Assembly: GCA_036170475.1 (NCBI GenBank)
Contig: JAVHPE010000126.1
Location: 3,999 to 67,998, forward strand
Source of the DNA: Bacteroidia bacterium
GTDB taxonomy: Bacteria > Bacteroidota > Bacteroidia > 2-12-FULL-35-15
Direction of reading: 5' to 3'
Length of the DNA stretch: 64,000 nucleotides
The position numbers were made by a program, and so were the translations under genes. How positions within the stretch are numbered: the first letter of the stretch is position 1; each line of letters starts with the position of its first letter. The notes beneath the pieces are model-generated. The model was not told where the DNA came from. It did not search any database and saw nothing but the letters and a program-made list of their open reading frames with translations. Below, piece by piece: positions 13,720 to 46,119 of this stretch.

Positions 13720-14209
13720 TTTCCCGCAGATTTCGCAAATTTTCGCAGATTTTTTTCTTGGTTAACCCGTTCTATCTATTTGAGATATTTGTAAATTATT
13801 TACTTTCCTATAAATTGAATTTGAAATATTATCGGTATTGAAATTTACTAGTATTCCTAGCTTTTTACCAGACAATTTCAAGTAAGTTAATACTTGTTTG
13901 TGATGTACATCTGCAATTTGTTCTACAGATTTTATTTCAATAATAACTAAATCATTTACTATAATATCTATTCTAAAACCAATATCTAATTTTTCACTTT
14001 CATAAATTACAGGTAAGGCAACTTGTGATCTGACCTCCAGTCCTTTCTTTTTCAATTCGAACATTAAGACCGCTTCATAAACTGATTCCAACAGGCCTGG
14101 CCCAAGTGAATTGTAAACTTTAAAAATAGCACCTCTTATAATGTAAGAAATTTCATTTTCTATCATTTTCTTAATTTTTTCCGCGTAAATCCGTGAAATC
14201 TGCGGGAAA
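13720..14209. mobile_element. inverted-repeat-bounded GxxExxY gene cassette
   Basis: TTTCCCGCAGATTTC at 13720-13734 and its exact reverse complement at 14195-14209 flank the GxxExxY ORF. Confidence 0.5.
13762..14166 (-). CDS. GxxExxY protein (PD-(D/E)XK nuclease-like)
   Basis: 134 aa. GPGLLESVYEAVLMFELKKKGLEV...IDIIVNDLVIIEIKSVE is the canonical GxxExxY family signature. Confidence 0.85.
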   Translation of the reverse strand: MIENEISYIIRGAIFKVYNSLGPGLLESVYEAVLMFELKKKGLEVRSQVALPVIYESEKLDIGFRIDIIVNDLVIIEIKSVEQIADVHHKQVLTYLKLSGKKLGILVNFNTDNISNSIYRKVNNLQISQIDRTG

Positions 14210-15541
14210 CAAATATTCTAAAATCCCTTTTGCTCCATCTTTTCCAGCCTGAACAGCATCCACAACTTCTTTGCCTCCATTTACGGAATCTCCACCGGCA
14301 AAAACTCCTTTCAAATTGGTTTCAGATTTTTCATTGATAGAAATTTTTCCATTTTTATTTTGTACGGACGATTTATTCAGAAGTTCTTCGAATGGCATCT
14401 GTCCTGCAGCTTTAATCACCATATCTACATCAATAGTAAATGTTTCACCCGTATCAACAGGAGCTCTTCTGCCCGAAGCATCAGGATCACCAAGCTTCAT
14501 TTTGTTGCAAACCAATTTTTTTACGTTGCCATTTTCACCAATAATTTCTTTAGGACTAGCTAACCAAATAAATGAACAACCATCAAGTTTCGCTAAATCA
14601 AGTTCCACATCGGTACATGGTTTTTCATTTTCTGTTCTACGGTAAATCATCGTTACTTCTCTTGATCCAAGGCGTTTTGATTGTGTTGCGGCATCAATGG
14701 CAGTCATTCCCATGCCTATAACAGCCACCTTATCTCCAACGGCTGTTGAAGAATAATCATTCGTACGAAGGTCATAAACAAATGAAATAGCATCTACAAC
14801 ACCTTCTAATTTTTCACCCGGAATATCTAATGAACGTGCAATTCCAACGCCTATTCCTAAAAATACCGCGTCATATTTTTTTTGAAGATCCGCAAGTATA
14901 ATGTCCTTCCCTAACTCTTTATTATATTGAACATTAATGCCTCCAATAGAAAGAATATAATCCACTTCATTTTTACAAAACTCAGGAGTAACCTTGTAAG
15001 CTGCCACTCCATAGGTCATTAAGCCACCGCCCTTTTTTTCTTTTTCAAAAATTGTAACATCCACACCTTGCAGAGAAAGTGCGTGTGCACAAGCTAATCC
15101 GGCAGGACCGGCGCCAACAACCGCTGCTTTTTTTCCATTAGAATGATTACGTTCAAAAAGTTTCCATTTTTCCTGAATCGCTTTTTCAGTAACATATCGT
15201 TGAAGTTTAGAGATGGCTATTGGTTTTTCTTCGAGCAAATTAAATACACAAATTCCTTCACACAACTTTTCTACAGGGCAAACTTTTGAGCATCCTCCAC
15301 CCATAATATTGGAAGTAAAAATGGTTTTTGCTGAACCTTTAATATTCCCGGAAGAAATTTGTTTTATGAATAATGGAACGTCAATACTTGTAGGACATAA
15401 TTTAGTGCATGGTGCATCATAACAATTAATACACCTGTCGGCTTCAATCATAGCACCTTCAGCATGTTCAAAAGGGGGATGAACGTCAGAAAAATTTTCT
15501 ATTAAAACTTCTTTTGATAAACGATTGTTTTTGATTGACAT
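14171..15541 (-). CDS. preT: NAD-dependent dihydropyrimidine dehydrogenase subunit PreT (GltD-like)
   Basis: N-terminal Cys cluster CINCYDAPCTKLCP, then Rossmann motifs AAVVGAGPAGLACA and KVAVIGMGMTAIDAA. This is the glutamate-synthase small-subunit-like fold, with preA nearby. Confidence 0.85.
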   Translation of the reverse strand: MSIKNNRLSKEVLIENFSDVHPPFEHAEGAMIEADRCINCYDAPCTKLCPTSIDVPLFIKQISSGNIKGSAKTIFTSNIMGGGCSKVCPVEKLCEGICVFNLLEEKPIAISKLQRYVTEKAIQEKWKLFERNHSNGKKAAVVGAGPAGLACAHALSLQGVDVTIFEKEKKGGGLMTYGVAAYKVTPEFCKNEVDYILSIGGINVQYNKELGKDIILADLQKKYDAVFLGIGVGIARSLDIPGEKLEGVVDAISFVYDLRTNDYSSTAVGDKVAVIGMGMTAIDAATQSKRLGSREVTMIYRRTENEKPCTDVELDLAKLDGCSFIWLASPKEIIGENGNVKKLVCNKMKLGDPDASGRRAPVDTGETFTIDVDMVIKAAGQMPFEELLNKSSVQNKNGKISINEKSETNLKGVFAGGDSVNGGKEVVDAVQAGKDGAKGILEYLFPADFTDLRGKN

Positions 15542-15617
15542 ATTTGAAATTGTATTATTATGAAATTTTTTAATGAATTAAGACAATGCCGTTAAGTTAT
15601 TGAACAATATTTACCCA

Positions 15618-15692
15618 ACGCACAGTCTTCGACAAGTTCTGACTGATCATTGTGCGATGTCACACTGAGCTTGTCGAAGTGTGCGAAGGCAT
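15618..15692. repeat. REP-like palindromic intergenic repeat, family 1, copy 1
   Basis: CACAGTCTTCGACAAGTTCTGACTGA...TCACACTGAGCTTGTCGAAGTGTGCG, an imperfect palindrome with about 26-nt arms. Related copies at 21166-21242 and 58188-58232. Confidence 0.7.
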
Positions 15693-15735
15693 TATAAAAT
15701 TTGTTATTGATATTTTATAAATCTTTATAAAAAAA

Positions 15736-16188
15736 CTACAGCGTTTCTGAAACGGTAGCATCCTTTTTAACTAAAACAGTTTCTTTTGGAGCAATGACTA
15801 AGGCTGTCCCATCAATAACTACTTTTTGATCTTGATTCTTACAAATTGTGCTCAATAAAACCTGATTTCCCTTAGGAAAATCAACTACTTCAATATACGC
15901 AGTAATAATTTCGCCCATCAATACCGGAGCCAAAAATTTCATATTCTGGTTTAAATAAATTGTGCCATTGCCCGGCAAATTTTTACCTATTGCAGCTGAG
16001 ATAAGACTTCCAACTAAAAATCCATGAACAATTTTTTGTTTAAAAATGCTATTTTTCGCATACTCTTCATTAAGATGAATAGGATTATCATCTCCCGAAA
16101 TTTTAGCGAAAACTATGACTTCTTCTTCTGTAATAGATTTAGTAATTTGGGTTTTATCTCCAATTTTCAAATATTTGGTATTTTCCAT
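15736..16188 (-). CDS. MaoC-family dehydratase (hotdog fold)
   Basis: 150 aa. FAKISGDDNPIHLNEEYAKNSIFKQKIVHGFLVGSLISAAIG is the MaoC signature. Confidence 0.8.
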   Translation of the reverse strand: MENTKYLKIGDKTQITKSITEEEVIVFAKISGDDNPIHLNEEYAKNSIFKQKIVHGFLVGSLISAAIGKNLPGNGTIYLNQNMKFLAPVLMGEIITAYIEVVDFPKGNQVLLSTICKNQDQKVVIDGTALVIAPKETVLVKKDATVSETL

Positions 16189-16346
16189 TGTACGTTATTT
16201 TAATTTTCCATTGCGTATTGTTACTGGATTTGCGTAAATATTGGTCATTCGTTTAATCCCCCTAACCCCTCCTTCGGCAAGCTCAGGACAGGCTTTTTCA
16301 AGGGGGAATTGTTCCGTATCCTTAGGGTAGTAGGATGGACATATTA

Positions 16347-17213
16347 TTACAGTTCCGTTAATCTACCGTAGGTTTCAGGTCTTCTGTCTCTGTAAAATTG
16401 CCAGGTACCTCTCACTTCTTCAATCATATCAAGATCAAAGTCAGCAATTAATAATTCGTCTTTATCTTCTGAGGCACAGGCAAATATTTGTCCGCGTGGA
16501 TCAACAAAATAAGAGCTTCCATAAAACTTACCTAAGTTCCAAGGTTTTTCCATTCCAACTCTGTTAATGCAACCCATAAAATAGCCATTTGCAGCTGCAT
16601 GGGCAGGTTGTTCCAATTTCCATAAATATTGCGATAATCCAGCGACCGTTGCAGACGGATTATAAACTATTTCAGCTCCATTTAATCCAAGGCATCTTGC
16701 ACCATCAGGAAAATGTCTGTCATAACAAATGTACACACCTATTTTCGCATATTTAGTTTGAAATACCGGATAACCAAGGTTTCCAGGCTTAAAGAAAAAC
16801 TTTTCCCAAAAGCCTGATGTTTGAGGAATATGATTTTTCCTGTATTTACCAAGATAGGTGCCATCTGCATCAATCACTGCAGCGGTATTATACAAAACTC
16901 CTTCCTGCTCCTTCTCATAGATCGGAACGATAATTACCATGTTGTATTTTTTCGCATACGTTGCCATCAAATCAGTAGTTGGTCCCGGAACAGCTTCTGC
17001 CGAAGCATACCATTTGTTATCTTGTCCCGGGCAGAAATAAGGAGTATTAAATATTTCCTGCAGACATAATATCTGAACTCCCTTTTTTCCGGCTTCCTCG
17101 ATATACGGAATGTGTTTTTGCACCATTGCATTGCAAATTTCTTTAATTGTTCCTTCTCCTTCAGTCATTGGAAGGCTCATTTGAATAAGTCCTGATTTAA
17201 TAATTCTTGCCAT
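16347..17213 (-). CDS. carbon-nitrogen hydrolase (nitrilase superfamily), beta-ureidopropionase / N-carbamoyl-amino-acid amidohydrolase-like
   Basis: 288 aa. Catalytic-triad context: E in LCLQEIF, K in GKYRKNHIP, C in GVYICYDRHFPD. Lies between preT and dihydropyrimidinase. Confidence 0.7.
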   Translation of the reverse strand: MARIIKSGLIQMSLPMTEGEGTIKEICNAMVQKHIPYIEEAGKKGVQILCLQEIFNTPYFCPGQDNKWYASAEAVPGPTTDLMATYAKKYNMVIIVPIYEKEQEGVLYNTAAVIDADGTYLGKYRKNHIPQTSGFWEKFFFKPGNLGYPVFQTKYAKIGVYICYDRHFPDGARCLGLNGAEIVYNPSATVAGLSQYLWKLEQPAHAAANGYFMGCINRVGMEKPWNLGKFYGSSYFVDPRGQIFACASEDKDELLIADFDLDMIEEVRGTWQFYRDRRPETYGRLTEL

Positions 17214-17361
17214 GTGGTTTAGTTTAGAGTTAAAAGTTTAGAGTTAAGAGTTTTTGTTTTGTGTTAAAAAAGTTTTGAGCTATATAGTTTTGAGTTAAAA
17301 GTGTAAATAGTTTTGAGTTAAAAGTTTAGAGTTATGAGTTTTTGTAGTGTGTTAAAAAAGT
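17214..17361. repeat. tandem duplication (about 45-bp units) at the left end of the four-helix-bundle cassette
   Basis: AGTTTAGAGTTAAGAGTTTTTGTTTTGTGTTAAAAAAGTTTTGAGC, then AGTTTAGAGTTATGAGTTTTTGTAGTGTGTTAAAAAAGTTTAGAGTT, with extra GAGTTAAAAGT units. Confidence 0.6.
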
Positions 17362-17752
17362 TTAGAGTTGTTTTGTTAAATATTTTTCTTTTGTTGTAAG
17401 TATAATACTGCTCAGAATTTTCATAAGTTCATTGCAATTATTTATTAAATTAATGTATTCTTCTTTATCTATGAAACCACTATCCGAAAGTAAATTAAGC
17501 CAATATGCCGTTTCTCTTGCTTCTTTTAATGAGATACTCATTTTGTGAATAAAATCTCTTTTTGATTCCCCTGCTAAAGCTTCGTTAATATTGGCTCCTA
17601 TGGAAGTGCCAGAACGTAAAACTTGTTTTGATAAAATAAATTCTCTCTTTTCAGACGATAAATTTTTGTAAAGTTTAATTATTAATAACGCAAAAGCATA
17701 AGATTTCCTTCCAACAATACTATCATTCTGTTTTAATAAACTCATAACTCTA
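17327..17752. mobile_element. inverted-repeat-bounded four-helix-bundle gene cassette
   Basis: TAGAGTTATGAGTTT at 17327-17341 and its exact reverse complement AAACTCATAACTCTA at 17738-17752. The ORF start codon lies inside the right arm. Confidence 0.5.
17362..17745 (-). CDS. four-helix-bundle protein (TIGR02436 / 23S rRNA intervening-sequence protein family)
   Basis: 127 aa. LSKQVLRSGTSIGANINEALAGESKRDFIHKMSISLKEARETAYWL is the family signature. Confidence 0.8.
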   Translation of the reverse strand: MSLLKQNDSIVGRKSYAFALLIIKLYKNLSSEKREFILSKQVLRSGTSIGANINEALAGESKRDFIHKMSISLKEARETAYWLNLLSDSGFIDKEEYINLINNCNELMKILSSIILTTKEKYLTKQL

Positions 17753-17763
17753 CTCTCTTAATT

Positions 17764-19143
17764 TTAAACTAAAGTAAATTTATTTCTTCTGATAAATTTA
17801 CCATATCCTTTTTCGACAAGTAATTTATTATCATCCACAGCTACATTACCTCTCAGGATTATTGTTTTGCATTTACCTGTTAATTGCCATCCTTCATAAC
17901 CGGAATAATCACAATTCATATGATGAGTTTTTGCAGAAATGGTATGCTTTTCATTCGGATCTAAAATTACTATATCAGCATCAGAACCTACAGCAATAGT
18001 ACCTTTCTGAGGATACATTCCAAATATTTTGGCTGCATTTGTGGAACTTACCTCAACAAATTTGTTCAGACTGATTTTATTTTTAATTACTCCTTCGGAG
18101 AATAATAATTCCATCCTGTTTTCAATTCCCGGAGCCCCATTCGGGATTTTTGTGAAATCGGTTGAACCCGCTTTCTTTTGTTCCCATGTGAATGGGCAAT
18201 GATCTGTCGCAACCACTTGCACAGTTCCCTGATTGATTCCTGCCCATAGACTTGTCTGATCTTTTTTCTCCCGTATCGGTGGACTCATCACCCATTTTGC
18301 AGATTCAAACCCTTTGTCATAAACAGAAGCATCGAGGACCAAATATTGAATACAGGTTTCAACAAAAATTTTCTGATTTCTTTTAGCAGCATCTCGGATG
18401 TGATTAAGCGCATCCTCGCTGGTCAGGTGTACAACATAAGATGGGACTCCTGTATGATACGCCATATCAGAAAAACGGCTTGTGGCTTCGCTTTCAGTAA
18501 TTTCGGGCTGAGATAAATAATGAAACAGAGGAGAAAGTTTCCCTTCCGATTTATGCTTCGCTACTAAGTAATCAATCATATCGCCATTGGTAGCATGAGT
18601 AGTTAATAATCCACCCTGTTTTTTTACTTCATGCATCAAGCCAATCATTTGCTTATCGTCAATCATTAAAGCACCTTTATAAGCCATGAATGTTTTGAAA
18701 GAAGTAATACCCTCTTTTTCAATCATGTCTTTTATTTCAGATCTGATTTCTTCATTAAAATCTGTTACGGACATGTGAAAAGAATAATCTCCAACAGCAT
18801 TTCCATCAGCACGACCCTTCCATTCATTTAATGCTGCGTATAAGGATTTCCCTTGTTTTTGGATCACAAAATCTATTACCATGGTAGTTCCTCCAAAAAG
18901 GGCTGCACGTGTTCCCGTTTCGTAATTATCACTGGAATAAGTCCCCATGAAGGGCATATCCAGATGAACATGAGGATCGATACCACCGGGTATTACCAAT
19001 TTGTTTTTTGCATCTATAACTATGTCCGCATTAACTGAAAGGTTGAGACCGATAAGTTTTACTTTTTCCTTTTCAATATAAATATCTGCAACATAATCAT
19101 CAGCAGCAGTTATAACTCTCCCATTTTTTATTAGAATTGACAT
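17764..19143 (-). CDS. dihydropyrimidinase / D-hydantoinase (cyclic amidohydrolase)
   Basis: ILIKNGRVITA...VIPGGIDPHVHLDMPFMGT...FKTFMAYKGALM, with metal-binding H-x-H, a carbamylated-Lys region and VVATDHCPF. Start set at MSILIKNG. Confidence 0.85.
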   Translation of the reverse strand: MSILIKNGRVITAADDYVADIYIEKEKVKLIGLNLSVNADIVIDAKNKLVIPGGIDPHVHLDMPFMGTYSSDNYETGTRAALFGGTTMVIDFVIQKQGKSLYAALNEWKGRADGNAVGDYSFHMSVTDFNEEIRSEIKDMIEKEGITSFKTFMAYKGALMIDDKQMIGLMHEVKKQGGLLTTHATNGDMIDYLVAKHKSEGKLSPLFHYLSQPEITESEATSRFSDMAYHTGVPSYVVHLTSEDALNHIRDAAKRNQKIFVETCIQYLVLDASVYDKGFESAKWVMSPPIREKKDQTSLWAGINQGTVQVVATDHCPFTWEQKKAGSTDFTKIPNGAPGIENRMELLFSEGVIKNKISLNKFVEVSSTNAAKIFGMYPQKGTIAVGSDADIVILDPNEKHTISAKTHHMNCDYSGYEGWQLTGKCKTIILRGNVAVDDNKLLVEKGYGKFIRRNKFTLV

Positions 19144-19310
19144 GTATGTTTTTTTAATCAAAGAATTTAAAATTCAATAAAAGATACAAAAATCAAATTT
19201 AATGAAATTTTCCAGAGGCTCTATATCTCACTTCCAAAATTTTATATTTTTTTGAATAAATTTTGCTTATATTTAGCTTCCTTAATTTTATAGACTTTAA
19301 AAATACTTTC

Positions 19311-21035: not shown

Positions 21036-21042
21036 GTATCCT

Positions 21043-21130
21043 CTGACAGGGTTTCAAACCCTGTTAGAGGTATTTAACGAGTTACGAAATCCGAACAAAA
21101 CCCCTAACAGGGTTTGGAACCCTGTCAGGG
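21043..21130. repeat. REP-like palindromic repeat, family 2, copy 1
   Basis: CTGACAGGGTTTCAAACCCTGTTAG ... CTAACAGGGTTTGGAACCCTGTCAG: two inverted hairpins (CAGGG-tttcaaa-CCCTG) separated by about 45 nt. Second copy at 56003-56090. Confidence 0.7.
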
Positions 21131-21165
21131 AGCGCACAATGTCGTTTAGTTAAGGAAAAACATCA

Positions 21166-21242
21166 GCCCACAGTCTTCGACAAGCTCTGACTGACCGCGC
21201 GCTGGTCATATTGAGCCTGTCGAAATATGTGCGATAGCATCT
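21166..21242. repeat. REP-like palindromic repeat, family 1, copy 2
   Basis: CACAGTCTTCGACAAGCTCTGACTGA...TGAGCCTGTCGAAATATGTGCGATAGCATC. Confidence 0.7.
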
Positions 21243-21269
21243 TAACTAAACAGCATTGAGGGAGCGCAA

Positions 21270-22502: not shown

Positions 22503-22517
22503 AAAATCAATTTATTT

Positions 22518-22916: not shown

Positions 22917-22927
22917 CAGGCAATCAG

Positions 22928-23632: not shown

Positions 23633-23661
23633 ATTAAATTGTGATTTTTTAAAAAAAAATT

Positions 23662-26150: not shown

Positions 26151-26161
26151 TTTAAGAATTT

Positions 26162-27708: not shown

Positions 27709-30700
27709 ATGAAAAAAATTCAAAATTTACTGATCCTTTCTTTTATTTACATCACTTCTATTTCTTATGCACAACTTGGAAAAGACGGCAATGGAAATAT
27801 TAATACGGCAAACCACATTGTAAATGAATATACTGATTTAACTTCAGATGCTACAATCGGTACTACTTCTATAAGTGTTTCAGCAAGCGGATTAAATGTG
27901 AATAATCGTTTTTCAGCTAACCTGGCTCCGGGCGATTTGATTATGATTATTCAGATGCAAGGCGCTACAATACTCGGACAGGCTGATTCAGCAAACCCTG
28001 TTACCAGCAACCCAAATGATGCTTCTTGGGGAAGTATAACCAATTATGGTAATTGTGGCAATTATGAATTATGCCAGGTAGCAGGCGTTCCTGATGGTTC
28101 TACCATTTCAATTGATTGCGGGTTAATAAACGGTTATACAGCCTCCGGGAAAGTACAAATAGTGCGTGTTCCACGATATAATACTTTAACAATAACATTG
28201 TCGGGTGTTTTAACATGCCAGCCTTGGAACGGAACAACAGGAGGTATTTTAGCTGTTGAAGTTCATGGCAGCACAACAATAAATGCCGGTGGAAAAATAA
28301 GCGCAGTTGGCAAAGGTTTTAGAGGTGCTTCATTATTTACTCCCACCCCTCCCCGCTCCCAAACTCTTTGGTACTCATCTACAAGCCTTGAAGTATCTGC
28401 CAACAAAGGAGAAGGTATTGCCGGATTCGACAATGATTATACAATTTATGGAGGGAAATACTGCAGAGGGGCGGCTGCTAATGCAGGTGGTGCAGGTAAT
28501 GTATGGAACGCAGGAGGTGGGGGGGGCGCTAATGCAGGATCAGTTGCTTCATGGACAGGTCAAGGAAATCCTGACACAAGTATAGCAGGATGGAGCACTG
28601 CTTGGAACCTTGAATCGCCCGGTTTTGCATATACTTCATCATCAGGCGGAGGCAGAGGAGGATATTCGTTTTCAGGTTCCAATCAAAACGCACTTGTTGA
28701 TCCTCCCAGCGATCTTATCTGGGGAGGCTATGCACGTGAAATTAACGGAGGCTTAGGAGGACGACCATTAGATTATTCAACCGGCAAAATTTTTATGGGT
28801 GGTGGTGGTGGCGGTGGTGAACAAGATAATAACCAAGGAGGAGTTGGAGGTGCAGGCGGGGGAATTATTTTCTTTACTTCTTATGGAACCATTACAGGCA
28901 GCGGCAATGACTCCATTATTGCTGACGGCAGCCATGGCGGAGATTCTCATACAACACCTCCTTTATCCAGCTATAGCGGAAAAGATGGATCCGGAGGAGC
29001 AGGAGGTGGAGGAACAATACTACTCAATGAATCTGGCATTAATGGACTTATATTATCTGCTCAGGGGGGCATAGGTGGTAATCAGGTTCTTACAAGAGGT
29101 TCATTGTATTTTGGAGCTATGAATGAAGCTGAAGGACCAGGAGGAGGAGGAGGAGGAGGATATATTGCCCTTTCTTCAGGTTCTGTAACACAAATAACTG
29201 ACGGTGGTTTCAGCGGAATTACTAATTCTGACGCGTTAACCGAATTCCTCCCGAATGGAGCAACCAAAGGTGCCGCAGGAATAATCAATCAAACAATTCC
29301 AAGAATTGATACAATTTCTGCTGCCAGTATGACTATTTGTGCAGGGGATTCTGCTACCCTTACTGCTACAATTGATGGAACAATTCCTGCCACACTTACT
29401 TGGTATAATGCACAAACAGGAGGCTCCATAGTTGGAACAGGTACATTTAATACATCTGCTTTATCAATTACTACTACCTATTATGTCGGGTTATGCCCGG
29501 GAACTTACAGAATTCCTGTAGTTGTAACAGTAGATCCGAGTATTGCATCAGTAAATATTTCACAAAACCCAACCGGTTCCATTTGTCCAGGAACACCCAT
29601 TACATATACTGCCGTCCCAACTACAGGAGGAACCTTACCTGTTTATCAATGGCTTGTAAATGGGTTATCTGTTGGAACTAATGCCGTTTCATTCACCAGT
29701 TCGACATTAATCAACAATGACACAGTAATTTGCATCATGACACCAAATTCCGTTTGTGCTTCAGGCATTCCTGTAGTATCTAATACAATAGTACTATCAG
29801 TAACCCCAAATGTAACGGCATCAGTAAATATTACATCCATACCTTCAGGACCAATATGTGCAGGCACTTCAGTAACTTTTACTGCAACGGCTGTTAATGG
29901 TGGAACAATCCCTGTATTTCAGTGGCAGCGGAATGGAATAAATATCGGAGGTAATTCTAATATTTATAGTAGTTCCTCCTTATCAAATGGTGATGTCGTA
30001 GTTTGTATACTTACTTCAAATGCTGATTGTGTTTTGAATTCCCCTGCAACATCCAATTCAATTACAATGGTAATATACCCTTTACCAATACCAGGCATTA
30101 CCTCAAATACAAACAGTGGATGTTATCCTATGTGTATTCAGTTTAACGAAACCAGCGGAGCTACATATAACTCCGTAATTTATACCTTCGGAGATGGCGA
30201 TTCGTCCACAACAATGGCTCCTCAACATTGTTATACGCAAATTGGAACTTATTCTGTAACCATTACCTGCACTGATGCAAACGGGTGCATAGGTACAACT
30301 CTGAACTCAAATATGATAACGATAGGCTCTAATCCTATCGCAGATTTTTCTTCTTCTCCCACAAATGTTATTACAGCAAACACTATTGTTTCTTTTACAG
30401 ATATATCAACAAATAGCGTTGTATCGATGTGGAATTTTGGGGATCCTGGCTCAGGTATAGATAACAGTTCATATTTATCATCACCTTATCATACTTATTC
30501 ATCCGCCGGAACATATTGCATAGAACTGACTGTACAAAATCAGTTTGGTTGTATGGATTCTACCAATGAATGCCTAACGGTTACTAATGATGCAGCCATA
30601 ACTATTCCTAATGTATTTTCTCCAAATGGCGATGGCATTAACGATAAGTTTTTTATCACGCTTACTGCAATAAAAGAGTTGAGCTGCAGTATTTTTGACA

Positions 30701-30867
30701 GATGGGGTGTAAAGGTTTCGGAATGGAATACCTTAGATGGAGATTGGGATGGCAAGACAGAAAGTGGGAAAATGGCCAACGACGGAGTCTATTTCTTTAT
30801 TATTAAAGCAACTGGATTGAATGAAAAAATAATTAATGAACATGGTTTCCTGACTTTGTCGAAATAG
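27709..30867 (+). CDS. large surface protein: Gly-rich N-terminal region, Ig-like/PKD-like repeats, gliding-motility-type (T9SS type B) C-terminal domain
   Basis: 1052 aa with a signal peptide. Repeats such as SIPSGPICAGTSVTFTATAVNGGTIPVFQWQRNG. The C-terminus IPNVFSPNGDGINDKFFI...DRWGVKVSEWN...NDGVYFFIIKA matches the type B CTD. Confidence 0.8.
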   Translation: MKKIQNLLILSFIYITSISYAQLGKDGNGNINTANHIVNEYTDLTSDATIGTTSISVSASGLNVNNRFSANLAPGDLIMIIQMQGATILGQADSANPVTSNPNDASWGSITNYGNCGNYELCQVAGVPDGSTISIDCGLINGYTASGKVQIVRVPRYNTLTITLSGVLTCQPWNGTTGGILAVEVHGSTTINAGGKISAVGKGFRGASLFTPTPPRSQTLWYSSTSLEVSANKGEGIAGFDNDYTIYGGKYCRGAAANAGGAGNVWNAGGGGGANAGSVASWTGQGNPDTSIAGWSTAWNLESPGFAYTSSSGGGRGGYSFSGSNQNALVDPPSDLIWGGYAREINGGLGGRPLDYSTGKIFMGGGGGGGEQDNNQGGVGGAGGGIIFFTSYGTITGSGNDSIIADGSHGGDSHTTPPLSSYSGKDGSGGAGGGGTILLNESGINGLILSAQGGIGGNQVLTRGSLYFGAMNEAEGPGGGGGGGYIALSSGSVTQITDGGFSGITNSDALTEFLPNGATKGAAGIINQTIPRIDTISAASMTICAGDSATLTATIDGTIPATLTWYNAQTGGSIVGTGTFNTSALSITTTYYVGLCPGTYRIPVVVTVDPSIASVNISQNPTGSICPGTPITYTAVPTTGGTLPVYQWLVNGLSVGTNAVSFTSSTLINNDTVICIMTPNSVCASGIPVVSNTIVLSVTPNVTASVNITSIPSGPICAGTSVTFTATAVNGGTIPVFQWQRNGINIGGNSNIYSSSSLSNGDVVVCILTSNADCVLNSPATSNSITMVIYPLPIPGITSNTNSGCYPMCIQFNETSGATYNSVIYTFGDGDSSTTMAPQHCYTQIGTYSVTITCTDANGCIGTTLNSNMITIGSNPIADFSSSPTNVITANTIVSFTDISTNSVVSMWNFGDPGSGIDNSSYLSSPYHTYSSAGTYCIELTVQNQFGCMDSTNECLTVTNDAAITIPNVFSPNGDGINDKFFITLTAIKELSCSIFDRWGVKVSEWNTLDGDWDGKTESGKMANDGVYFFIIKATGLNEKIINEHGFLTLSK

Positions 30868-31371: not shown

Positions 31372-31390
31372 ATTTTTGCCTTAAATATTT

Positions 31391-36932: not shown

Positions 36933-37418
36933 GTGATTTAGAATAATTTATTTACAAATGAACGAAAAAAAATGTGAAATGAAATATAAACTTGGAATTT
37001 GCCAGATTTCAAAACATTGCCCTTTCTTCTTTTACTTTAGCGAATTATACAAACCTGATTGTTTGTTGAAAAGATAGTCGGGCAAATAACCAGAGCGATA
37101 TAAGCTGAAACAGCAAACACACCAACATAATCCAAACTCATACATTTACCAATCAGAATGGTATCAGAATGTTTTAAACTTATGGAGGAAAAACTTGACA
37201 GAGTAAAAACAAACCAAATTTTATAATTTTAGCCTCTCCTATTATTTTAAATAACCTACATCCATTTTCAAGGAAGAAAGTAGAAACAAATAGTTTTAAA
37301 ACATTTAATTAACTTTGTCCCGAAACGTTTCCTTATGCTGGAAAATTGTGTAAATCGTAAATTTATACGGTTTCCATTTTTATCAATATTCTTATAGCGA
37401 TATAGTATTATCTGTTTT

Positions 37419-38564: not shown

Positions 38565-38634
38565 ATTAACTGAATTAACCGATTTTATTAATTTTAATAA
38601 TTATATTTGCATTTTAAAATCTATTCAAATTCAA

Positions 38635-39702
38635 ATGAAAATAGCCATCATAACAGGTTCAGGAGGACTCATCGGGAGTGAATCAGTATCGTTTTTCTCA
38701 AAACATTTTGATAAAATAATCGGCATTGACAATGATATGCGGAGCTATTTTTTTGGTAAAGAAGCTTCTACCAGTTGGAATGTGAACAGGATCAAAGAAA
38801 ACGTTCCAAACTATGAACATCATGCTATTGATATTCGTGATTTAGCGAGCCTTGAAAAATTATTTAACCAGTATAACAACGATATTAAATTAATAGTTCA
38901 TACTGCCGCGCAACCCAGTCATGATTGGGCTGCAAAAGAACCGATTACTGATTTCGGAGTAAATGCAACAGGTACGCTTCACATGCTTGAACTAACACGT
39001 AAATACTGTAGTAAAGCTGTTTTTCTATTTACTTCTACCAACAAAGTATATGGCGACAATCCAAATTATTTGCCTTTGGTTGAAAAAGAAACACGCTGGG
39101 AAATTGCGGAAAACCACGCTTATTTTAAAAATGGTATTGATGAACAAATGAGTATTGACCATACAAAACACTCTGTGTTTGGTGTATCAAAACTAGCTGC
39201 GGATGTGATGGCTCAGGAATACGGAAAATATTTTGATATGAGTGTCGGCATTTTTCGCGGTGGTTGTCTTACAGGGCCTAATCACAGTGGAGCCCAGCTT
39301 CATGGTTTTTTATCCTACCTGATGAAATGCACACTAACCGGAAACCATTACACCATCTTTGGTTATAAAGGAAAGCAGGTTCGTGATAATATTCATAGTT
39401 CTGATTTGGTGAATATGTTCTGGCATTTTTATCAACAGCCAAAAATGGGGGAGGCTTACAATGCCGGTGGCGGACGGTTTGCAAACTGTTCCATGATTGA
39501 AGCGATTAAAATGTGTGAAATTATCAGCGGTAAAAAATTAAACCATACCTATAGTGAACAGGCACGTAGTGGCGACCATATCTGGTATATCAGCGATGTA
39601 TCTAAATTCAAAAAAGATTATCCGGGTTGGGAATACAAATGGAATTTGCAGGATACCCTTATTGATATTTATAATACGATGAGTAAAAAAATTAGTTGGT
39701 AA
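38635..39702 (+). CDS. NAD-dependent epimerase/dehydratase (CDP-paratose 2-epimerase-like)
   Basis: [16 protein letters not shown] (Rossmann) and [16 protein letters not shown] (YxxxK). Start set at the internal ATG. Confidence 0.75.
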
Positions 39703-40915
39703 CAGAATTTTTATTTAACTGATCACTATACAAGTTGATTACTTGCTTTAAAAATTTTTCTTCTGAAAATTTCTCTTCAATGATAGCTCTGCCATATTCT
39801 GAAAAAGAGGTATAATCATCCATATCAATAAAGGTCTCAATATTTTGAATAAATTCTTTTTCATTATTCAGGTCCGCTAACAGTCCTGATTTATTATTTA
39901 TTACCATATCCGGTATTCCTCCGATATTAAAACCAAGAACCGGAGTTCCGCAAGCGAGGGATTCTACAATAGTATTCGGTAAATTATCTTCAATGGAAGG
40001 GATCACAAAAAAATCAGCCGCATTATAACAATTTACAATATCAATATCCTTATTTATAAAACCCAACTGAATTACTTGGAAATCAAAATCAATATGTTCT
40101 ACCTTCTTGCCTATCATTAAAACACAGATTTTTGATTTGTTTTTAATCTGATTCAAAGCAGAAAAAAGCAGATGCATCCCTTTCCTTTTATCATTCGGAT
40201 TTTCTGCGACAAACAAAATAAATTTTTTATCTATATGGTCAAGACTAAGTTTAATACGCGCTTCGGCTTTATTTACTGGCTTAAATAGTGTTGTGTTAAT
40301 ACAGTTAGGAATTACCTTCACTTCGAAATCTTTAAATACTTCACTTTCCTTTGCCAGCTTCCCAAGCCATACGGAAGGTGTAATAACAATCAAATTAACA
40401 TCTCTTAAATACTTTTTTTTAATGTCTATATTTCGCTGAAGCAAATTTTTATAGGGCTGGTAATCTAAATCTGCAGTGTAATGGTTTCCTCCGGTAAATG
40501 GATTCATGTCATGTAGTGTCCAAAAAAAAATTTTCTGCTTGTCAGTAAAAATGTGTTTATATGAAATAATTTTGGGTACCCAATGAAAATGGATAATATC
40601 AGCCTCTTTGTAGATGTTAAGTTTATCAATACGAAAAAGAGAAAAAGGACCATTTATGTAGGCTTTTTTATTAAATAAAGTGGGCAGTTTATTTAACAAT
40701 TGATTGATGAATTTTAATGAAAGGTAATAAAAAAAACCATACTTTTTTGAAAGCAATTCCTGAATAGAATAAACATTTTTCTCAACAGGACAATTTATTT
40801 TATTCAACACCAATAAACTGGAATCGTATCCATTAGCCAATAATGCCTGATGCTGCCTTCTACAAGCTATAGCCGCACCTCCTCCATAATTAGTAGTAAT
40901 CAATAAAATTTTCAT
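39692..40915 (-). CDS. glycosyltransferase family 4
   Basis: [25 protein letters not shown], and a C-terminal E-x7-E region ([32 protein letters not shown]). Confidence 0.8.
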
Positions 40916-41094
40916 CCAGGTAAACCTAAAAAACTTTGCATTATAACGGTAAAATTAAGAGAAAAACGATTGAACAGCGGAAAATTATCTTTCTAATTAA
41001 AATAGTGGTAATGACATAAAAAACCCAAACTCCTGATTTTCTAATTTTTATATTACTTTTAACATCTGTATAAGTTAAATTTAAAAATTCGTCT

Positions 41095-41493
41095 ATGAAA
41101 AAAATAATATCAATCTTATTACTTGCGATAGCCGTAACAAGTACCTCATGTAAAAAACCTGCCGGTGAAGGTGGTAATTCTTCTATTAAAGGAAATATAT
41201 GGGCACAAAAATGGAACAGTACATTTACAACGTTAACAAGTGAAGGTGCCGGAGAGAATATTGATGTTTTTATAATTTATGGATCCGAAACCAGTTATGG
41301 ACATAAAATTTCTACCAGTCCGGATGGGACATTTGAGTTTAATTATCTCCGTCCCGGTTCATATAAAGTATATGTATATTCAAAAACAACAACTACCGCT
41401 AATGCAAACGGTAAAGTTGCTGTTTCTGTTGATGTAGAAATTACTAAGAAAAAACAAGCCGTTGATGCCGGGAAAATTACGGTTAATATTTAA
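41095..41493 (+). CDS. lipoprotein with carboxypeptidase-regulatory-like beta-sandwich
   Basis: Lipobox VTSTSC, and PDGTFEFNYLRPGSYKVYVY. Confidence 0.45.
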   Translation: MKKIISILLLAIAVTSTSCKKPAGEGGNSSIKGNIWAQKWNSTFTTLTSEGAGENIDVFIIYGSETSYGHKISTSPDGTFEFNYLRPGSYKVYVYSKTTTTANANGKVAVSVDVEITKKKQAVDAGKITVNI

Positions 41494-41618
41494 AATTCAT
41501 ACAAATCAAGAATGATTACTAATTTACTAAACTGTATATATAAAGTAGCAATTTCTGTTTCGTAGATTCGTTTTTTATTTGTTATTCGTAACCCCCATCA
41601 CTATCCAAAGAATATACT

Positions 41619-42188
41619 ATGAAAACAAAAGCAGTTGTATTTATTATTGTGATGATTAGTTTTAGTTTAGCTATTCATTCCCAAGGCAAAAAAACAGTTA
41701 AAAAATTTAAAATTAAATCAACCAGTGTTTCGATTATGGAAATGGTTGATGGTAAAAGCAAAACACGTACAGACTCTTACCAAAAATACGATAATTCAGC
41801 TCATGTGATTGAAGATGTTGAATATAATAAAGACGGGACTTTCAAGAAAAAAGAAACAAAAAAATTCAACAAAAATGAAGATCCTATTGAGGAAGTTATA
41901 TATGATGAAAAAGGAAATTTTAAAAAGAAAACTACTACTGAATACAATACTAACAAGGATAAAACATCGGAAAATGTTTTTGACAGTAATGACAAATTAA
42001 TAGAAAAAACAGTTTTTGGTTATAACACAAAGGGAGAAAAAACCTTTGAGCTGACTACTGATGATAAAGGAAAAGTAATAAAAAATTCAATTTATTCGTA
42101 TGATAAAAATGGTCTTAAAATTGAGAAAAAAACAACGGATGCAAATGGTAATTTTCTTTCAACAAAAAAATATACTTACGAATATTAA
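41619..42188 (+). CDS. secreted Lys/Thr-rich repeat protein
   Basis: Signal peptide present. About five repeats of Yxx(D/N)xxGxxxxKxTxxYNxxxDKTxE... Confidence 0.45.
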   Translation: MKTKAVVFIIVMISFSLAIHSQGKKTVKKFKIKSTSVSIMEMVDGKSKTRTDSYQKYDNSAHVIEDVEYNKDGTFKKKETKKFNKNEDPIEEVIYDEKGNFKKKTTTEYNTNKDKTSENVFDSNDKLIEKTVFGYNTKGEKTFELTTDDKGKVIKNSIYSYDKNGLKIEKKTTDANGNFLSTKKYTYEY

Positions 42189-42244
42189 AATTGGAATATC
42201 TTAAAAATAGTTTGGGCAGCTTTACCCCCATTTCATTAGAAAAA

Positions 42245-42946
42245 ATGGACAAAGTAAAACTGATGGACAGAACAGATACAAAGTATGTTTTTACATTAGC
42301 TCAACTACCAATTCTTCTTGCTGAACTTAAACTGGATTACCATATTGTTGATATAAACGGCAACAGAATCAGCAGGTACGAATCGCTTTATTTTGATACA
42401 AAAAAGTTTGATTTATATCATTGCCATCATAGAGGTAAGCCAAACCGTTTTAAGATACGTTTTAGAAAATATGTTGAGTCTGAAATCTGTTTTTTCGAAG
42501 TAAAATTTAAAAACAATAAAGGAAGAACCATCAAAGATCGTGTAAAACAAAAACAAATTAATAACACAATAAATGGTAAAGCGGAAATTTTATTGAAAGA
42601 AAAAACACCTTTGCTTCCAATTCATTTAGAACCAAAGTTGTGGGTAAATTATTCACGAATTACATTAGTAAATAAAAATTCTCCCGAACGTGTTACTATT
42701 GATATCGACTTAAATTTTAAAAATAATGAGCAGACTATATCTATTAAAAATCTGGTAATTGCTGAAGTAAAACAAAATAAAGCGTTTAGTTCGGCATTTA
42801 CCAAACTAATGAAAAAATACCATATAAGGGAAGGTTCTATCAGTAAATATTGTTTTGGAGTAATAAGTCTGTTTAAAAAAATAAAACATAATAATTTTAA
42901 GCCCGATTTAAATTTACTAAAGAAAATACTTTATACTAAAATCTAA
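42245..42946 (+). CDS. VTC-domain (polyphosphate polymerase domain) protein
   Basis: KVKLMDRTDTKYVF...YESLYFDT...FKIRFRKY is the VTC/CYTH-like signature. The listed ORF begins at a TTG, so the start was moved to the first ATG (MDKVKL). Confidence 0.75.
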   Translation: MDKVKLMDRTDTKYVFTLAQLPILLAELKLDYHIVDINGNRISRYESLYFDTKKFDLYHCHHRGKPNRFKIRFRKYVESEICFFEVKFKNNKGRTIKDRVKQKQINNTINGKAEILLKEKTPLLPIHLEPKLWVNYSRITLVNKNSPERVTIDIDLNFKNNEQTISIKNLVIAEVKQNKAFSSAFTKLMKKYHIREGSISKYCFGVISLFKKIKHNNFKPDLNLLKKILYTKI

Positions 42947-42951
42947 TCATT

Positions 42952-43578
42952 ATGATTCTACTACAGGAAATTAGCGAAGAAGCCGTTAAATCGGGATTTG
43001 AGTTGTTTGACAAGTTAGGACCTAAATTTTTCATCCGCATAGGAATAAATTTTGCCTCTGTATTTATCCTTATCCGGTTTATATATTTTCGAAGATATAA
43101 AAGCAGTGAAAACTTTTTTACATTTTTTATTTTTAACCTCATTATTTTTCTGATTACGTTTATTCTAAATAAATCAGATATGAGTATGGGTGCCGCATTT
43201 GGGTTGTTCGCTGTTTTTTCTATGTTACGATACCGAACAGAAGGAATTAGCACAAAAGATATGACCTACCTGTTTTTGGTTATTGCAATGGGATTAATTA
43301 CAGCCTTAAGCAAAGGCACTTGGTTTGAATTAATATTTCTTAATATTCTTATTATTCTATCCACGTATTTGCTTGAAAGCAGCATGCTGATGAAAAAAGA
43401 AGAAACCAAAATAATACAATATGAAAATATTGAAATGATTCAACCCGAATTTCATACTGAACTAATTGCAGATTTAGAAAAACGAATGGGAATTAAAATC
43501 AATCGCATCTCTATTGGTAAAGTTGATTTTTTAAAAGACACCGCTTTAATAAAAATTTATTATTATGAGTCGAAATAA
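42952..43578 (+). CDS. DUF4956 domain-containing membrane protein (usual VTC partner)
   Basis: GAAFGLFAVFSMLRYRTEGISTKDMTYLFLVIAMGLITAL, immediately downstream of the VTC gene. Confidence 0.75.
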   Translation: MILLQEISEEAVKSGFELFDKLGPKFFIRIGINFASVFILIRFIYFRRYKSSENFFTFFIFNLIIFLITFILNKSDMSMGAAFGLFAVFSMLRYRTEGISTKDMTYLFLVIAMGLITALSKGTWFELIFLNILIILSTYLLESSMLMKKEETKIIQYENIEMIQPEFHTELIADLEKRMGIKINRISIGKVDFLKDTALIKIYYYESK

Positions 43579-43588
43579 GCAAAAGTGC

Positions 43589-44287
43589 ATGTCTTCATTG
43601 AAGGGAAAAGGTATATTGTCGCTGTTTTTCATCACTTTTAGCGTTAGTATAAATAGTTTTTCACAGCCAGTAAATGATGCTGGTATGTGGACAACATTTA
43701 ATGTGGATAAAAAAATTAAAAATGATGTTTCCATCTTCTTAACCGAAGAATACCGGTTGAAAGAGAATTTCACACAAACTAATTTGTTTTATTCTGAATT
43801 AGGACTTGAGATTCGTCCATTGAATTTTCTGAAAGTATCCTTGGCATACCGGATGATTGAAAAAAATTTAATTGATAACACCTTTAGCTTTCGCCACCGC
43901 ATGATGCTAAATATCACATTTAAAAAAAAATTGAAAAAAATTTCCTTGTCTTATCGTCAACGAATTCAAGCCGAAGAAAGAAATATATATTCCAGTGCGA
44001 ACGGAAGGATGCCCGAATGGTATTCAAGAAATAAATTTGAACTGAAATATGATTTAAATAAACCTGTTACACCCTATATCGCGGCTGAATTTCGCTATCA
44101 GATTAACGATCCAAGGAATACTGAATCCAACGGATTATGGCATCGTAGCCGTTATATTATTGGCATAGATTATAAAAGAAACGATAAAAATACATTTGGC
44201 TTGTATTACTTAATTCAAAATGAATACAATGTTTCTTCCCCTGAAAATTTATACATTGTCGGTTTGGAATATTCGTTGTCTTTATAA
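43589..44287 (+). CDS. putative outer-membrane beta-barrel protein (DUF2490-like)
   Basis: Signal peptide ILSLFFITFSVSINSFSQP, alternating amphipathic beta-strand pattern, C-terminal aromatic (LEYSLSL). Family call tentative. Confidence 0.4.
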   Translation: MSSLKGKGILSLFFITFSVSINSFSQPVNDAGMWTTFNVDKKIKNDVSIFLTEEYRLKENFTQTNLFYSELGLEIRPLNFLKVSLAYRMIEKNLIDNTFSFRHRMMLNITFKKKLKKISLSYRQRIQAEERNIYSSANGRMPEWYSRNKFELKYDLNKPVTPYIAAEFRYQINDPRNTESNGLWHRSRYIIGIDYKRNDKNTFGLYYLIQNEYNVSSPENLYIVGLEYSLSL

Positions 44288-44290
44288 AAA

Positions 44291-45487
44291 TTACCTCCTT
44301 TTTCCACCACCACTTCCCCTATTACCAGATTTTGACCCCGAGCTGGGAGTAGAATGTGAAGCAGGACTTGCATGATGCTCTGAACGATTTTGTTTAACTG
44401 ACGGCGACGACTTTTTATTTTCCTTCATTCTGTTACCTTTATTGTTGCTATTATTGTTACTCTTATTATCATTCCCAACTGAAACATTCTTTTCATTTCT
44501 TGTATCCTTATGAAACCCATCTTTAGTAGACTTGTTGTTGTCAACAGATGAATTTGTTCCTTTATCTTTACCTGACGAACGTCCTTCTTTAATTTGATCT
44601 GAACTCGCCCTGTCATACGTATTTTTATATTCTCCCTTTTCTCTTCTTTGATTTACAGTTGCTGACGTTGTTCTTCTCTGCCCGTAGTAATCATGAGCAT
44701 TCGAATTACGATAATGATCTGATCGGTGGTAATAACCATAATAATCATTATAATGATGGTAATGGTAGCCATAATAATAGGAATGCCAGTACAACGGTGC
44801 CCAAGGATTCCAATATCCGGGGTAATAACCCCAACTCCATGGAGAAACATATACTACATACGATGGGAAAAACAGGTAATGAATAATGCTCCAGCTTCCT
44901 ACCGGGTGCCAATAATCATTTATAGTGTTTGTAGAATTGTAATAATTATTAGTTATAGTAGTCGTTTTTTTATCGCCGGATCCTGAGTTAGCAGAGTTGG
45001 CAGATTTAGCACCCGTATATCCCGGATTCGGTGTTCCTCCTGTTGTGGTTTTTTCCACTTCATCTTTTGGTTCAATTATATAATTTTTCCCGTATAGCTG
45101 CTCATCGCCTATAATCTGAATCTGAACTTTTTCATTCTTATCTTTTTCAACTTCAATTACGGCAACATCCTGAGTTTCTTTTTCATTTACCGCTACCTGA
45201 AGAACAATAGCATGTGCAGTTCCTTTCACATTATCTTTTACACTAATATAGTCAATCTTACCATTGCCATTCAAATCAAGATTATTGACTTTAGAATCTT
45301 CAGCATTTAGTTTTTTCTCAAATTCTTCTAATGTTTCAGATTTTTGAAAAAGATCCAGAACACCGTAAAGATTTAGGTTATCTCCCGGCAAACCCAATGA
45401 GTCAGGGGTTATTTTTTCCTGAGAGAAAACAGGAGAGCATAAAAGACTACCTCCTATTATTGTTGCGAAAAACAGCGCTTTTTTCAT
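44291..45487 (-). CDS. secreted protein with Ca-binding-like N-domain and extreme Tyr/His/Trp-rich, then Ser/Asn/Lys-rich, low-complexity tail
   Basis: Signal peptide present. DLNGNGKIDYISV loop. WHPVGSWSIIHYLFFPSYVVYVSPWSWGYYPGYWNPWAPLYWHSYYYGYHYHHYNDYYGYYHRSDHY, followed by a basic polar tail. Confidence 0.5.
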   Translation of the reverse strand: MKKALFFATIIGGSLLCSPVFSQEKITPDSLGLPGDNLNLYGVLDLFQKSETLEEFEKKLNAEDSKVNNLDLNGNGKIDYISVKDNVKGTAHAIVLQVAVNEKETQDVAVIEVEKDKNEKVQIQIIGDEQLYGKNYIIEPKDEVEKTTTGGTPNPGYTGAKSANSANSGSGDKKTTTITNNYYNSTNTINDYWHPVGSWSIIHYLFFPSYVVYVSPWSWGYYPGYWNPWAPLYWHSYYYGYHYHHYNDYYGYYHRSDHYRNSNAHDYYGQRRTTSATVNQRREKGEYKNTYDRASSDQIKEGRSSGKDKGTNSSVDNNKSTKDGFHKDTRNEKNVSVGNDNKSNNNSNNKGNRMKENKKSSPSVKQNRSEHHASPASHSTPSSGSKSGNRGSGGGKRR

Positions 45488-45639
45488 TTTGATAAGTTTT
45501 TATATTAAAGATAAAACAAATACACATTACATTTACGCATAATCATAAACCATTCCAATTTTTATTTATAAATTTACGAGCACCCAAAAATACAAAATAC
45601 CAGCCAATATGATATACTAAAAAATATCGTAGCACTTAA

Positions 45640-46119
45640 GTCCCCCTTGTGAGTTGGACTGTGGGATTGCGAAGGGGGCAGGGGGATGAAAATCTGTTAT
45701 TCATGAACAACCATTACAATAAAAAGTTAAAATCCTTCGCTCAAAGCAATAGAAATTTTTCAACTAAAGCGGAAATAAGAATTTGGTGTGAATTATTGAG
45801 AAATAAAAAAATGTTAGGGTTCCCGTTTTTACGTCAACGACCAATTGAGAATTATATAGCTGATTTTATGTGTAAAGAACTAAATTTGATAATTGAAATT
45901 GATGGCTATTCTCATCAATTCAAATATGAGGAAGATATTGAAAGAGATGACAGACTAAAACAATTGGGATTTCATGTTCTGCGTTTTACAGATGACGAAA
46001 TAACAAAACATATTACAAATGTTGAACGTGCTATTATTCAATGGATAGATAATAAAGAAAAACAATTTCATCCCCCTGCCCCCTTCACTGACGCACATTC
46101 AATCACACAAGGGGGACAA
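45640..46119. mobile_element. DUF559 endonuclease gene bounded by about 49-bp imperfect terminal inverted repeats
   Basis: Left GTCCCCCTTGTGAG-n17-GAAGGGGGCAGGGGGATG at 45640-45688. Right (reverse complement) GTCCCCCTTGTGTG-n17-GAAGGGGGCAGGGGGATG at 46069-46119. Confidence 0.55.

Follow-up and report, generated by a model that had tools for sequence, protein, structure and literature searches.

Intervening sequences (IVSs) that carry an open reading frame (ORF) are known from the 23S rRNA genes of Coxiella, Leptospira, Brucella and Xanthomonas, the ORF being of the S23p type. The Coxiella IVS measures 428 nt, is closed by a 28-bp terminal stem, holds a sense ORF for a four-helix-bundle (4HB) protein with tandem GACAGAT heptamers (varying in number by strain) before its ATG, and is excised by RNase III, while how rRNA IVSs and their ORFs arose, move and function has been unclear for more than 30 years (PMC4990558). 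In REPIN-RAYT systems, a gene lies between inverted copies of a lineage-specific repeat that is also dispersed as hairpins, with vertical inheritance and persistence of the gene (PMC3116915). Here we describe three units of related design, U1, U2 and U3, in a 64,000-nt stretch of a Bacteroidia bacterium (GCA_036170475.1, contig JAVHPE010000126.1; the window). Each is a cassette consisting of a promoter-less ORF of about 120–140 codons in the loop of a 30–60-nt inverted repeat (IR), co-directional within a host transcription unit, so that the same hairpin-plus-ORF unit as in rRNA IVSs lives in ordinary operons.

Like the 23S rRNA IVSs (428–444 nt), the cassettes are small (466–556 nt) and have terminal IRs, with a stem of ~28–36 bp round a sense ORF, a 4HB protein of the same PF05635 family and pre-ATG heptamers of variable number. 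U2 indeed shares every Coxiella feature listed above except the rRNA host, its stem pairing being predicted and RNase III excision taken by analogy. An earlier interpretation of this DNA, made from its letters and ORFs alone (the sequence-only reading), had linked these genes to rRNA IVS ORFs, and the link was apt, as the Coxiella architecture matches (PMC4990558). Unlike rRNA IVSs, however, the units reside in mRNA operons with protein-coding neighbours instead of helix 25 or 45 of 23S rRNA (no Rfam family, rRNA included, was found in the window), and they come with two further, unrelated cargo families and with cargo-less hairpin derivatives.

The likeness to REPIN-RAYT systems lies in a small gene between inverted copies of a repeat that recurs, as hairpins without cargo, at other places in the genome, in a repeat type of its own for each gene lineage, in largely vertical inheritance and in selection on the gene. 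By contrast, Pfam and NCBIfam assign the cargo to PD-(D/E)XK, Vsr-like or helical-bundle proteins and not to Y1 (HUH) transposases, two families here have arms of tandem words instead of GTAG/CGTC-tagged palindromes, and a genome may hold several diverged cargo copies. In the literature, no account was found in which GxxExxY, 4HB or DUF559 genes are packaged by IRs outside rRNA, where this hairpin-bracketed design is thus apparently undescribed.

Anatomy of the three units

In an unbiased search of 13–47 kb of the window for IRs with arms up to 700 nt apart, the top-ranked pairs at 360–490 nt spacing, which were also the three longest long-range IRs, were exactly those bracketing three small ORFs (Table 1), confirming the claim of the sequence-only reading that three small genes each lie between IRs in this region. 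U1 and U2 are both located within a minus-strand pyrimidine-catabolism operon and are co-directional with it, and U3 precedes, in the same direction, a DUF1456-helicase gene pair. The region has a GC content of ~34% and is Bacteroidota-like, and the nearest relatives of the window locus were uncultured Bacteroidota, Chitinophagaceae and Ferruginibacter metagenome-assembled genomes.

The U1 protein passed the curated cut-offs of PF13366 and TIGR04256 and has the GxxExxY motif and the D..ExK triad, the catalytic D67, E77 and K79 and the GxGxxExxY motif being conserved. The U2 protein scored 104.4 bits with PF05635 (cut-off 33.8) and 114 bits with TIGR02436 (cut-off 24), and matched PDB entry 2rld (E 1e-32), which was deposited with five chains; the 4HB family also includes Avd, the accessory protein of diversity-generating retroelements. 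The DUF559 protein of U3 scored 100.4 bits with PF04480 (cut-off 20.6) and matched the 'endonuclease-like protein' of PDB entry 3hrl (E 1e-15); a listed GTG start at 45649 falls within its 5′ arm, and homologues do not use it. Defence-system models yielded only insignificant Cas4-like matches to the cargo proteins.

Two other kinds of element were considered and set aside. An integron gene cassette does not fit a unit with arms on both sides of the ORF, in which no R′ (GTTRRRY) or R″ (RYYYAAC) core was seen by eye and whose neighbours are metabolic genes. Likewise, the 4HB gene is not part of a diversity-generating retroelement, as it lies between the dihydropyrimidinase and amidase genes and the only repeats found there were the arms.

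For the strand of the host transcript, predicted RNA folds of U1, U2 and U3 all contained a terminal long-range stem, in the minimum free energy as well as the centroid structure, with z-scores of –6.0 for U1 and –7.1 for U3. The single 5′ arm of U2 pairs with both of its 3′ copies over 34–36 nt (82–83%), the U2 arms being period-7 arrays of AGTTAAG. Among orthologous hairpins, 2/24 and 6/22 pairs were compensatory.

The overlap of IRs with coding ends, which the sequence-only reading had regarded as part of the design, is real at U1, U2 and U3. The U1 5′ arm doubles as coding sequence (the last 12 PreT residues, ~445–456, and stop; PreT stop at 14171–14173), while the 5′ arm of 4HB cassettes spans –27..+6 and so includes the ATG, and the stop is at the beginning of the 3′ arm. 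However, the related loci L002 and L007 still have the native PreT stop, located upstream of the U1 arm, and the DUF559 stop of L190 precedes its arm. Because the overlap varies in this way among relatives, it is an incidental by-product of compactness and not a conserved design. The arms also matter for annotation, as they encode many of the unusual C-terminal tails and N-terminal extensions of Bacteroidota proteins.

Table 1. Positions in the window of the cassette components, their host operon and related repeats
Feature	Position	Strand	Remarks
U1 5′ arm	14180..14209	–	30 nt; operon sense TTTCCCGCAGATTTCACGGATTTACGCGGA; pairs with 3′ arm at 83%
U1 cargo, GxxExxY/PDDEXK_3 PD-(D/E)XK nuclease	13762..14166	–	134 aa; PF13366 E 4e-41, TIGR04256
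U1 3′ arm	13720..13749	–	30 nt; sense TCTGCGAAAATTTGCGAAATCTGCGGGAAA; 83% complementary
U2 5′ arm	17738..17773	–	holds dihydropyrimidinase stop (17764–17766) and 4HB ATG (17743–17745)
U2 cargo, 4HB protein, S23p/Avd-like	17362..17745	–	127 aa; PF05635 E 5e-30, TIGR02436
U2 proximal 3′ arm copy	17308..17341	–	period-7 array
U2 distal 3′ arm copy	17218..17253	–	4 nt short of amidase ATG (17211–17213); closes predicted stem
U3 5′ arm	45640..45698	+	59 nt; GTCCCCCTTGTGAG..GAAGGGGGCAGGGGGATGAAAATCTGTT; 80% with 3′ arm; forms small G5/C5 hairpin by itself
U3 cargo, DUF559, Vsr-like endonuclease fold	45703..46131	+	142 aa from ATG 45703; PF04480 E 7e-29
U3 3′ arm	46059..46117	+	within last ~24 DUF559 codons
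Decayed upstream copy of DUF1456 leader and first ~16 codons	45586..45640	+	direct repeat of 46118–46179
Functional DUF1456 leader and 5′ coding end	46118..46179	+	downstream direct-repeat member flanking U3
Dihydropyrimidinase	17764..19161	–	first in operon order, followed by U2
Amidase	16347..17213	–	after U2
MaoC-like dehydratase	15736..16188	–	after amidase
PreT-like protein	14171..15541	–	after MaoC, followed by U1
Solo U3-type arm	54855..54905	+	no cargo; GTCCCCCTTGTGAG...GAAGGGGGG
Solo G5/C5-type repeat	16240..16330		MaoC/amidase gap

Recurrence, arm types and junctions among relatives

The main comparison set comprised 80 orthologous loci fetched with the PreT-like protein, plus the window; a second sample covered 0.8 Mb around helicase homologues, and a third, independent one consisted of viral contigs. 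IRs were scored by local alignment of the 5′ flank with the reverse complement of the 3′ flank, with a threshold of ≥30. In the main set, this threshold was reached by 11 of 17 PDDEXK_3 genes (65%) and 15 of 19 4HB genes (79%), as against 1% among the other small genes (n = 232); in the second sample, none of 138 other small genes reached it. The recurrent design that the sequence-only reading had proposed was thereby upheld. In the viral contigs, strong tandem 7–8-mer IRs such as (TAATTCG)n, (GAAAGTT)n, (GACAATT)n and (GAGTAAT)n flanked 9/18 4HB genes, and PDDEXK_3 was represented there by only two loci, neither with clear IRs.

DUF559 homologues were found at three unrelated sites, namely before DUF1456 in another species, in an alaS/ABC-F gap and in a racemase/M28 peptidase gap. 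These proteins are 56–86% identical to that of the window, and all their genes are flanked by GTCCCCCTT..GAAGGGGGCAGGGGGATGA and its inverse, with the upstream motif copies forming tandem arrays whose copy number varies between strains encoding an identical protein. IR packaging of such small genes is thus non-random, recurrent and widespread in Bacteroidota. The GxxExxY, 4HB and DUF559 families are large, with more than 8000 GxxExxY candidates scored in one search, and the best 120 matches of the GxxExxY profile search were all from Bacteroidota. In the alaS|DUF559 spacer of L180–L189, the number of a 33-nt GTCCCCCTTCATTGAAGGGGGTAGATTTTTTTT unit varied by sample, and the spacer ranged from 124 to 451 nt next to an identical DUF559 protein. 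Another recurrent junction was seen directly downstream of a RecD-like helicase homologue, where PDDEXK_3 genes with CGCAAAG/CACAGAG-type arms lie in seven distant metagenome loci (L117, L119, L126, L144, L149, L150 and L161).

Each cargo family was found to have its own type of arm. PDDEXK_3 arms consist of two to five tandem C[GA]C[AG][AG]A[GT] words (CRCRRAK; CGCAGAT, CGCAAAG, CACGGAT, CACGAAT) with their complement in the other arm, and these words are kept between cassettes whose proteins share just 33–50% identity. Upstream of PDDEXK_3 genes there were 1.54 CRCRRAK words per 80 nt, compared with 0.04–0.05 for other small genes and for 4HB genes. The 5′ arms of 4HB cassettes are C-poor tandem 7–8-mers (GAGTTAT, GAATTAT, GAATGTT, AAGTTATT) that differ in each of three 4HB subclades, and DUF559 arms form a conserved GTCCCCC..GAAGGGGGCAGGGGGATGA palindrome. 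Pairwise comparison of the three arm types of the window revealed no sequence in common. As each family comes with its own arm type, the results do not point to a single mobilisation machinery shared by all. The U1 arms of the window are exchanged relative to L001, L002 and L007 (5′ arm of Y type, 3′ arm of X type) with the gene in the same orientation, pointing to past recombination or conversion between arms. Moreover, L001 and L002 have a complete hairpin before the PDDEXK_3 gene and a third arm after it, while L007 has two 3′ arms after this gene.

The flank analysis proposed with the sequence-only reading, including a search for insertion polymorphism, was positive at orthologous junctions of the pyrimidine-catabolism operon in 72 genomes, where empty, hairpin-only, 4HB-occupied and PDDEXK_3-occupied states were distributed in a patchy manner. 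The dihydropyrimidinase|amidase spacer, for example, measured 13–27 nt, 54–200 nt with a hairpin (of several arm types) or 430–730 nt with a cassette, and the PreT|PreA junction (J3) was occupied by PDDEXK_3 in eight genomes and by 4HB in 11. Mapping three junctions on the host tree gave a very patchy picture as well, with one whole clade having short, empty spacers everywhere. Even sister genomes differed: at J1, L004 carries PDDEXK_3 and L005 a decayed remnant, and at J3, the former has a hairpin and the latter 4HB. Similarly, J3 holds a 4HB cassette in L068 and a 70-nt hairpin in L048 and L073. The J3 4HB ORFs of L068 and L044 have in-frame stops and are pseudogenes with intact arms. Among orthologous loci, whole spacers were replaced and not merely interrupted. 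Contigs carrying the exact window proteins belonged to the window population only, and in all of them the cassette loci were occupied.

All 32 operon cassettes were co-oriented with their operon, and the upstream neighbour was on the same strand for 24/24 PDDEXK_3 and 19/19 4HB genes. A scan for sigma-70 promoters and terminators, which is ill-suited to Bacteroidota promoters, showed no excess at cassettes. The dihydropyrimidinase|amidase spacer also holds unrelated small genes in L057, L021/L038 and L065, which a reading of their N-terminal sequences alone suggested to be SRPBCC-like, DUF1211/TMEM175-like and methyltransferase-like; since these spacers yielded no strong hairpin score, the junction is a general hot spot of insertion.

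For orthologous cassettes at the same junction (window versus L001 and L007 for PDDEXK_3, window versus L007 for 4HB, and L073 versus L048), the ratio of nonsynonymous to synonymous divergence (dN/dS) was 0.05–0.09, with dS values of 1.1–2.3. Host genes of the same genome pair had dS values of 1.27 (PreT) and 2.7 (amidase). The low dN/dS and host-like dS therefore indicate that the cassettes are old, vertically inherited and co-diverged with the operon, and that their proteins are kept by selection. The term 'minimal selfish cassettes' from the sequence-only reading is thus too simple, being at odds with this age and selection. PDDEXK_3 catalytic residues were invariant across alignments, and DUF559 of the window versus L179 gave a dN/dS of 0.33 at a dS of 0.27. 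The arms were far better conserved than synonymous sites, with 29/30 positions being identical between the window U1 5′ arm and the proximal 3′ arm of L007 when the latter is reverse-complemented.

Cargo-less hairpins resemble the ends of cassettes. The J3 hairpin of L048 matches both ends of the J1 4HB cassette of the same genome (33/36 and 30/37 positions), including the ATGAATGA start that represents the first ORF codons, while the L039 hairpin matches cassette ends at 34/36 and 33/37 positions; the same both-ends match was seen in L073 and L068. These shared ends show that the hairpin-only elements arose from cassettes by internal deletion. Copies of the arms were ~10-fold enriched inside their own locus.

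No target-site duplication or flanking direct repeat was found at U1 or U2, and no transposase gene lay next to any examined cassette. An imperfect direct repeat of ~55–60 nt (score 44, versus a shuffle maximum of 32) lies on both sides of U3 and duplicates the 5′ end of DUF1456, and L179 has the same direct repeat, its decayed upstream copy keeping the ATG. Insertion of U3 therefore took place within the DUF1456 coding sequence at its 5′ end, and the duplication restored the gene. Entry might have occurred by one-sided, homology-facilitated illegitimate recombination, or the element might have carried a copy of its target. Among 80 helicase metagenome loci surveyed for an empty U3 site, only L098 had the DUF1456-helicase arrangement, and this cassette-less locus has a different upstream gene.

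Origin and meaning of the cassettes

We favour, with a probability of about 0.5, the interpretation that these units are IVS-type, hairpin-bracketed cassettes of mRNA operons whose stem is processed and whose protein and hairpin are cognate partners. In the host transcript, pairing of the arms would produce a long stem with the cassette as its loop; this stem is probably cleaved by RNase III, like those of rRNA IVSs. Such cutting would make the insertion tolerable while the ORF rides on host transcription. Each protein would then target the hairpins of its own family, with PDDEXK_3 and DUF559 serving as nucleases and 4HB as a nucleic-acid-binding oligomer (compare the five chains in 2rld). Protein and hairpin would thus form a REPIN-RAYT-like partnership, and not depend on one shared transposition machinery. 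By analogy with RAYTs and their REPINs, each protein probably is partnered with its own hairpin family.

Several observations weigh against this interpretation. Processing of the cassette stems by RNase III is deduced by analogy with the rRNA IVSs, and the AU-rich fold of U2 was no stabler than its shuffled counterparts (z = –0.16). Among stem mismatches, G:U was not commoner than A:C on the sense strand (27 vs 49), so that a wobble signature of selection acting on the sense RNA is missing; selection for arm pairing, whether as RNA or as DNA, is nevertheless supported. Furthermore, the other nine of the 18 viral-contig 4HB genes have no IRs, and neither do three other DUF559 genes of related loci. 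Finally, the specificity between protein and arm could be a mere co-inheritance of gene and arms.

Free-standing homing endonuclease genes, such as the seg and mob genes of phage T4, are likewise small nuclease genes that sit, co-oriented and patchily among relatives, between conserved genes. Homing-type spread, in which the nuclease would cut a palindromic cargo-less hairpin and the gene of an occupied allele be copied into the break, with the half-sites becoming the flanking IRs, would account for the nuclease folds of PDDEXK_3 and DUF559, the invariant catalytic residues of the former, the position of the cargo at the centre of a palindrome and the presence/absence polymorphism in spacers of conserved operons. 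We consider it unlikely, however, because 4HB shares the design without having a nuclease fold, and because the cargo-less hairpins hold the first ORF codons and hence look like deletion derivatives instead of virgin targets. Two 4HB cassettes of one genome are moreover only ~50% identical and have different arms, which speaks against recent intragenomic homing, and long vertical co-divergence under purifying selection differs from the life cycle of homing endonucleases. The long flanking IRs are a further difference from the free-standing homing genes. A similarly low probability is given to the view that the units are domesticated, host-beneficial modules that do not move, with hairpins serving as operon punctuation (mRNA processing, stability or translational coupling) and proteins as trans-acting factors. 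Arms and hairpin-only elements are indeed conserved where synonymous sites are saturated, hairpins of the same type occur at successive junctions of one operon, and purifying selection on the cargo equals that on host genes. Nevertheless, the entire clade with short empty spacers at all junctions keeps the operon, which makes the elements dispensable; junction content turns over between sisters (L004/L005, L068/L048), some cargo has acquired in-frame stops (L068 and L044 at J3), and the same architecture is met in rRNA and in viral contigs.

Mobilisation of all three types by one shared trans-acting transposase or recombinase, in the manner of miniature inverted-repeat transposable elements (MITEs) with passenger genes, was the sequence-only reading's own explanation, and we find it less probable still. 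All three types do have terminal IRs, cargo-less derivatives are dispersed within genomes, and operon spacers are hot spots; as in MITEs and other non-autonomous elements with terminal IRs, hairpin-only copies keep both ends of the gene-bearing element. The claim of a single mechanism was not sustained, however: the arms of the three families are unrelated in sequence and family-specific, they are tandem-word arrays instead of defined termini, and whole spacers are replaced. Unlike in MITEs and insertion sequences, there is no transposase gene in or adjoining the gene-bearing copies and no short target-site duplication, U1 and U2 having none and the ~55–60-nt repeat of U3 being unlike the usual transposase footprint. 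The invertons of Bacteroidota resemble ~400-bp IR-flanked segments, and IRs acting as recombination sites that flip a small gene on or off (phase variation) would agree both with this form and with the U1 arm swap, which implies past inter-arm recombination or conversion. Yet 0/32 operon cassettes were reversed, 43/43 had a same-strand upstream neighbour, all 8+10 population contigs showed one orientation and no invertase gene was adjacent, leaving this the most improbable explanation by far.

Extending the favoured interpretation of processed cassettes with cognate protein and hairpin, one could tentatively envisage a general class of 'protein-in-hairpin' replicators in Bacteroidota, and probably other phyla, in which three unrelated proteins each maintain and spread their own tandem-word hairpins as a convergent, non-Y1 analogue of REPIN-RAYT systems, with ORF-bearing 23S IVSs being members that landed in rRNA. 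We regard this wider proposal as possible but rather doubtful; if true, such a class would explain the long-unexplained origin of ORF-bearing 23S IVSs. The combination of family-specific arm grammar, cargo-less derivatives and selection on both protein and arms turns an anecdote into a testable system, in which the arm sequences are concrete candidate substrates for concrete proteins.

Other repeats and neighbouring genes

Tandem GCAATTG heptamers occupy 54790–54850, just upstream of the solo U3-type arm. Regarding the solo G5/C5-type repeat, all eight Logan short-read contigs with an identical amidase (L081–L088) end 67 nt past the amidase stop, inside this repeat (~16280), which therefore must be multicopy in the genome; cassette-type repeats thus break short-read assemblies. 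A separate hairpin family (TTCGACAAGCTCTGACTGA and its inverse) is present in several intergenic spacers (15627–15679, 21176–21215 and 57770–57788), and operon junctions of L075 hold related TTCGACAAGCTCAGG hairpins. Two more long cargo-less hairpins were seen at 21043–21128 (32-nt arms, 91%) and 54949–55090 (67-nt arms, 76%).

The MaoC-like dehydratase gene in the amidase-PreT interval was found only in the clade of the window (window, L001–L005, L007 and L045), the other orthologous operons running from amidase to PreT with no MaoC match between them. In this genome only, an 848-aa glycosyl-hydrolase-like gene with a type IX secretion system (T9SS) tail (11142–13688, minus strand) separates U1 from PreA (9781–11049, minus strand); in the inspected relatives, the PreT|cassette spacer runs straight into PreA, and the native PreA leader is still present in the window at 11050–11100. 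Finally, the GC content climbs to 0.435 at 28001–30000 (~0.34 elsewhere), within a 1052-aa ORF at 27709–30867.

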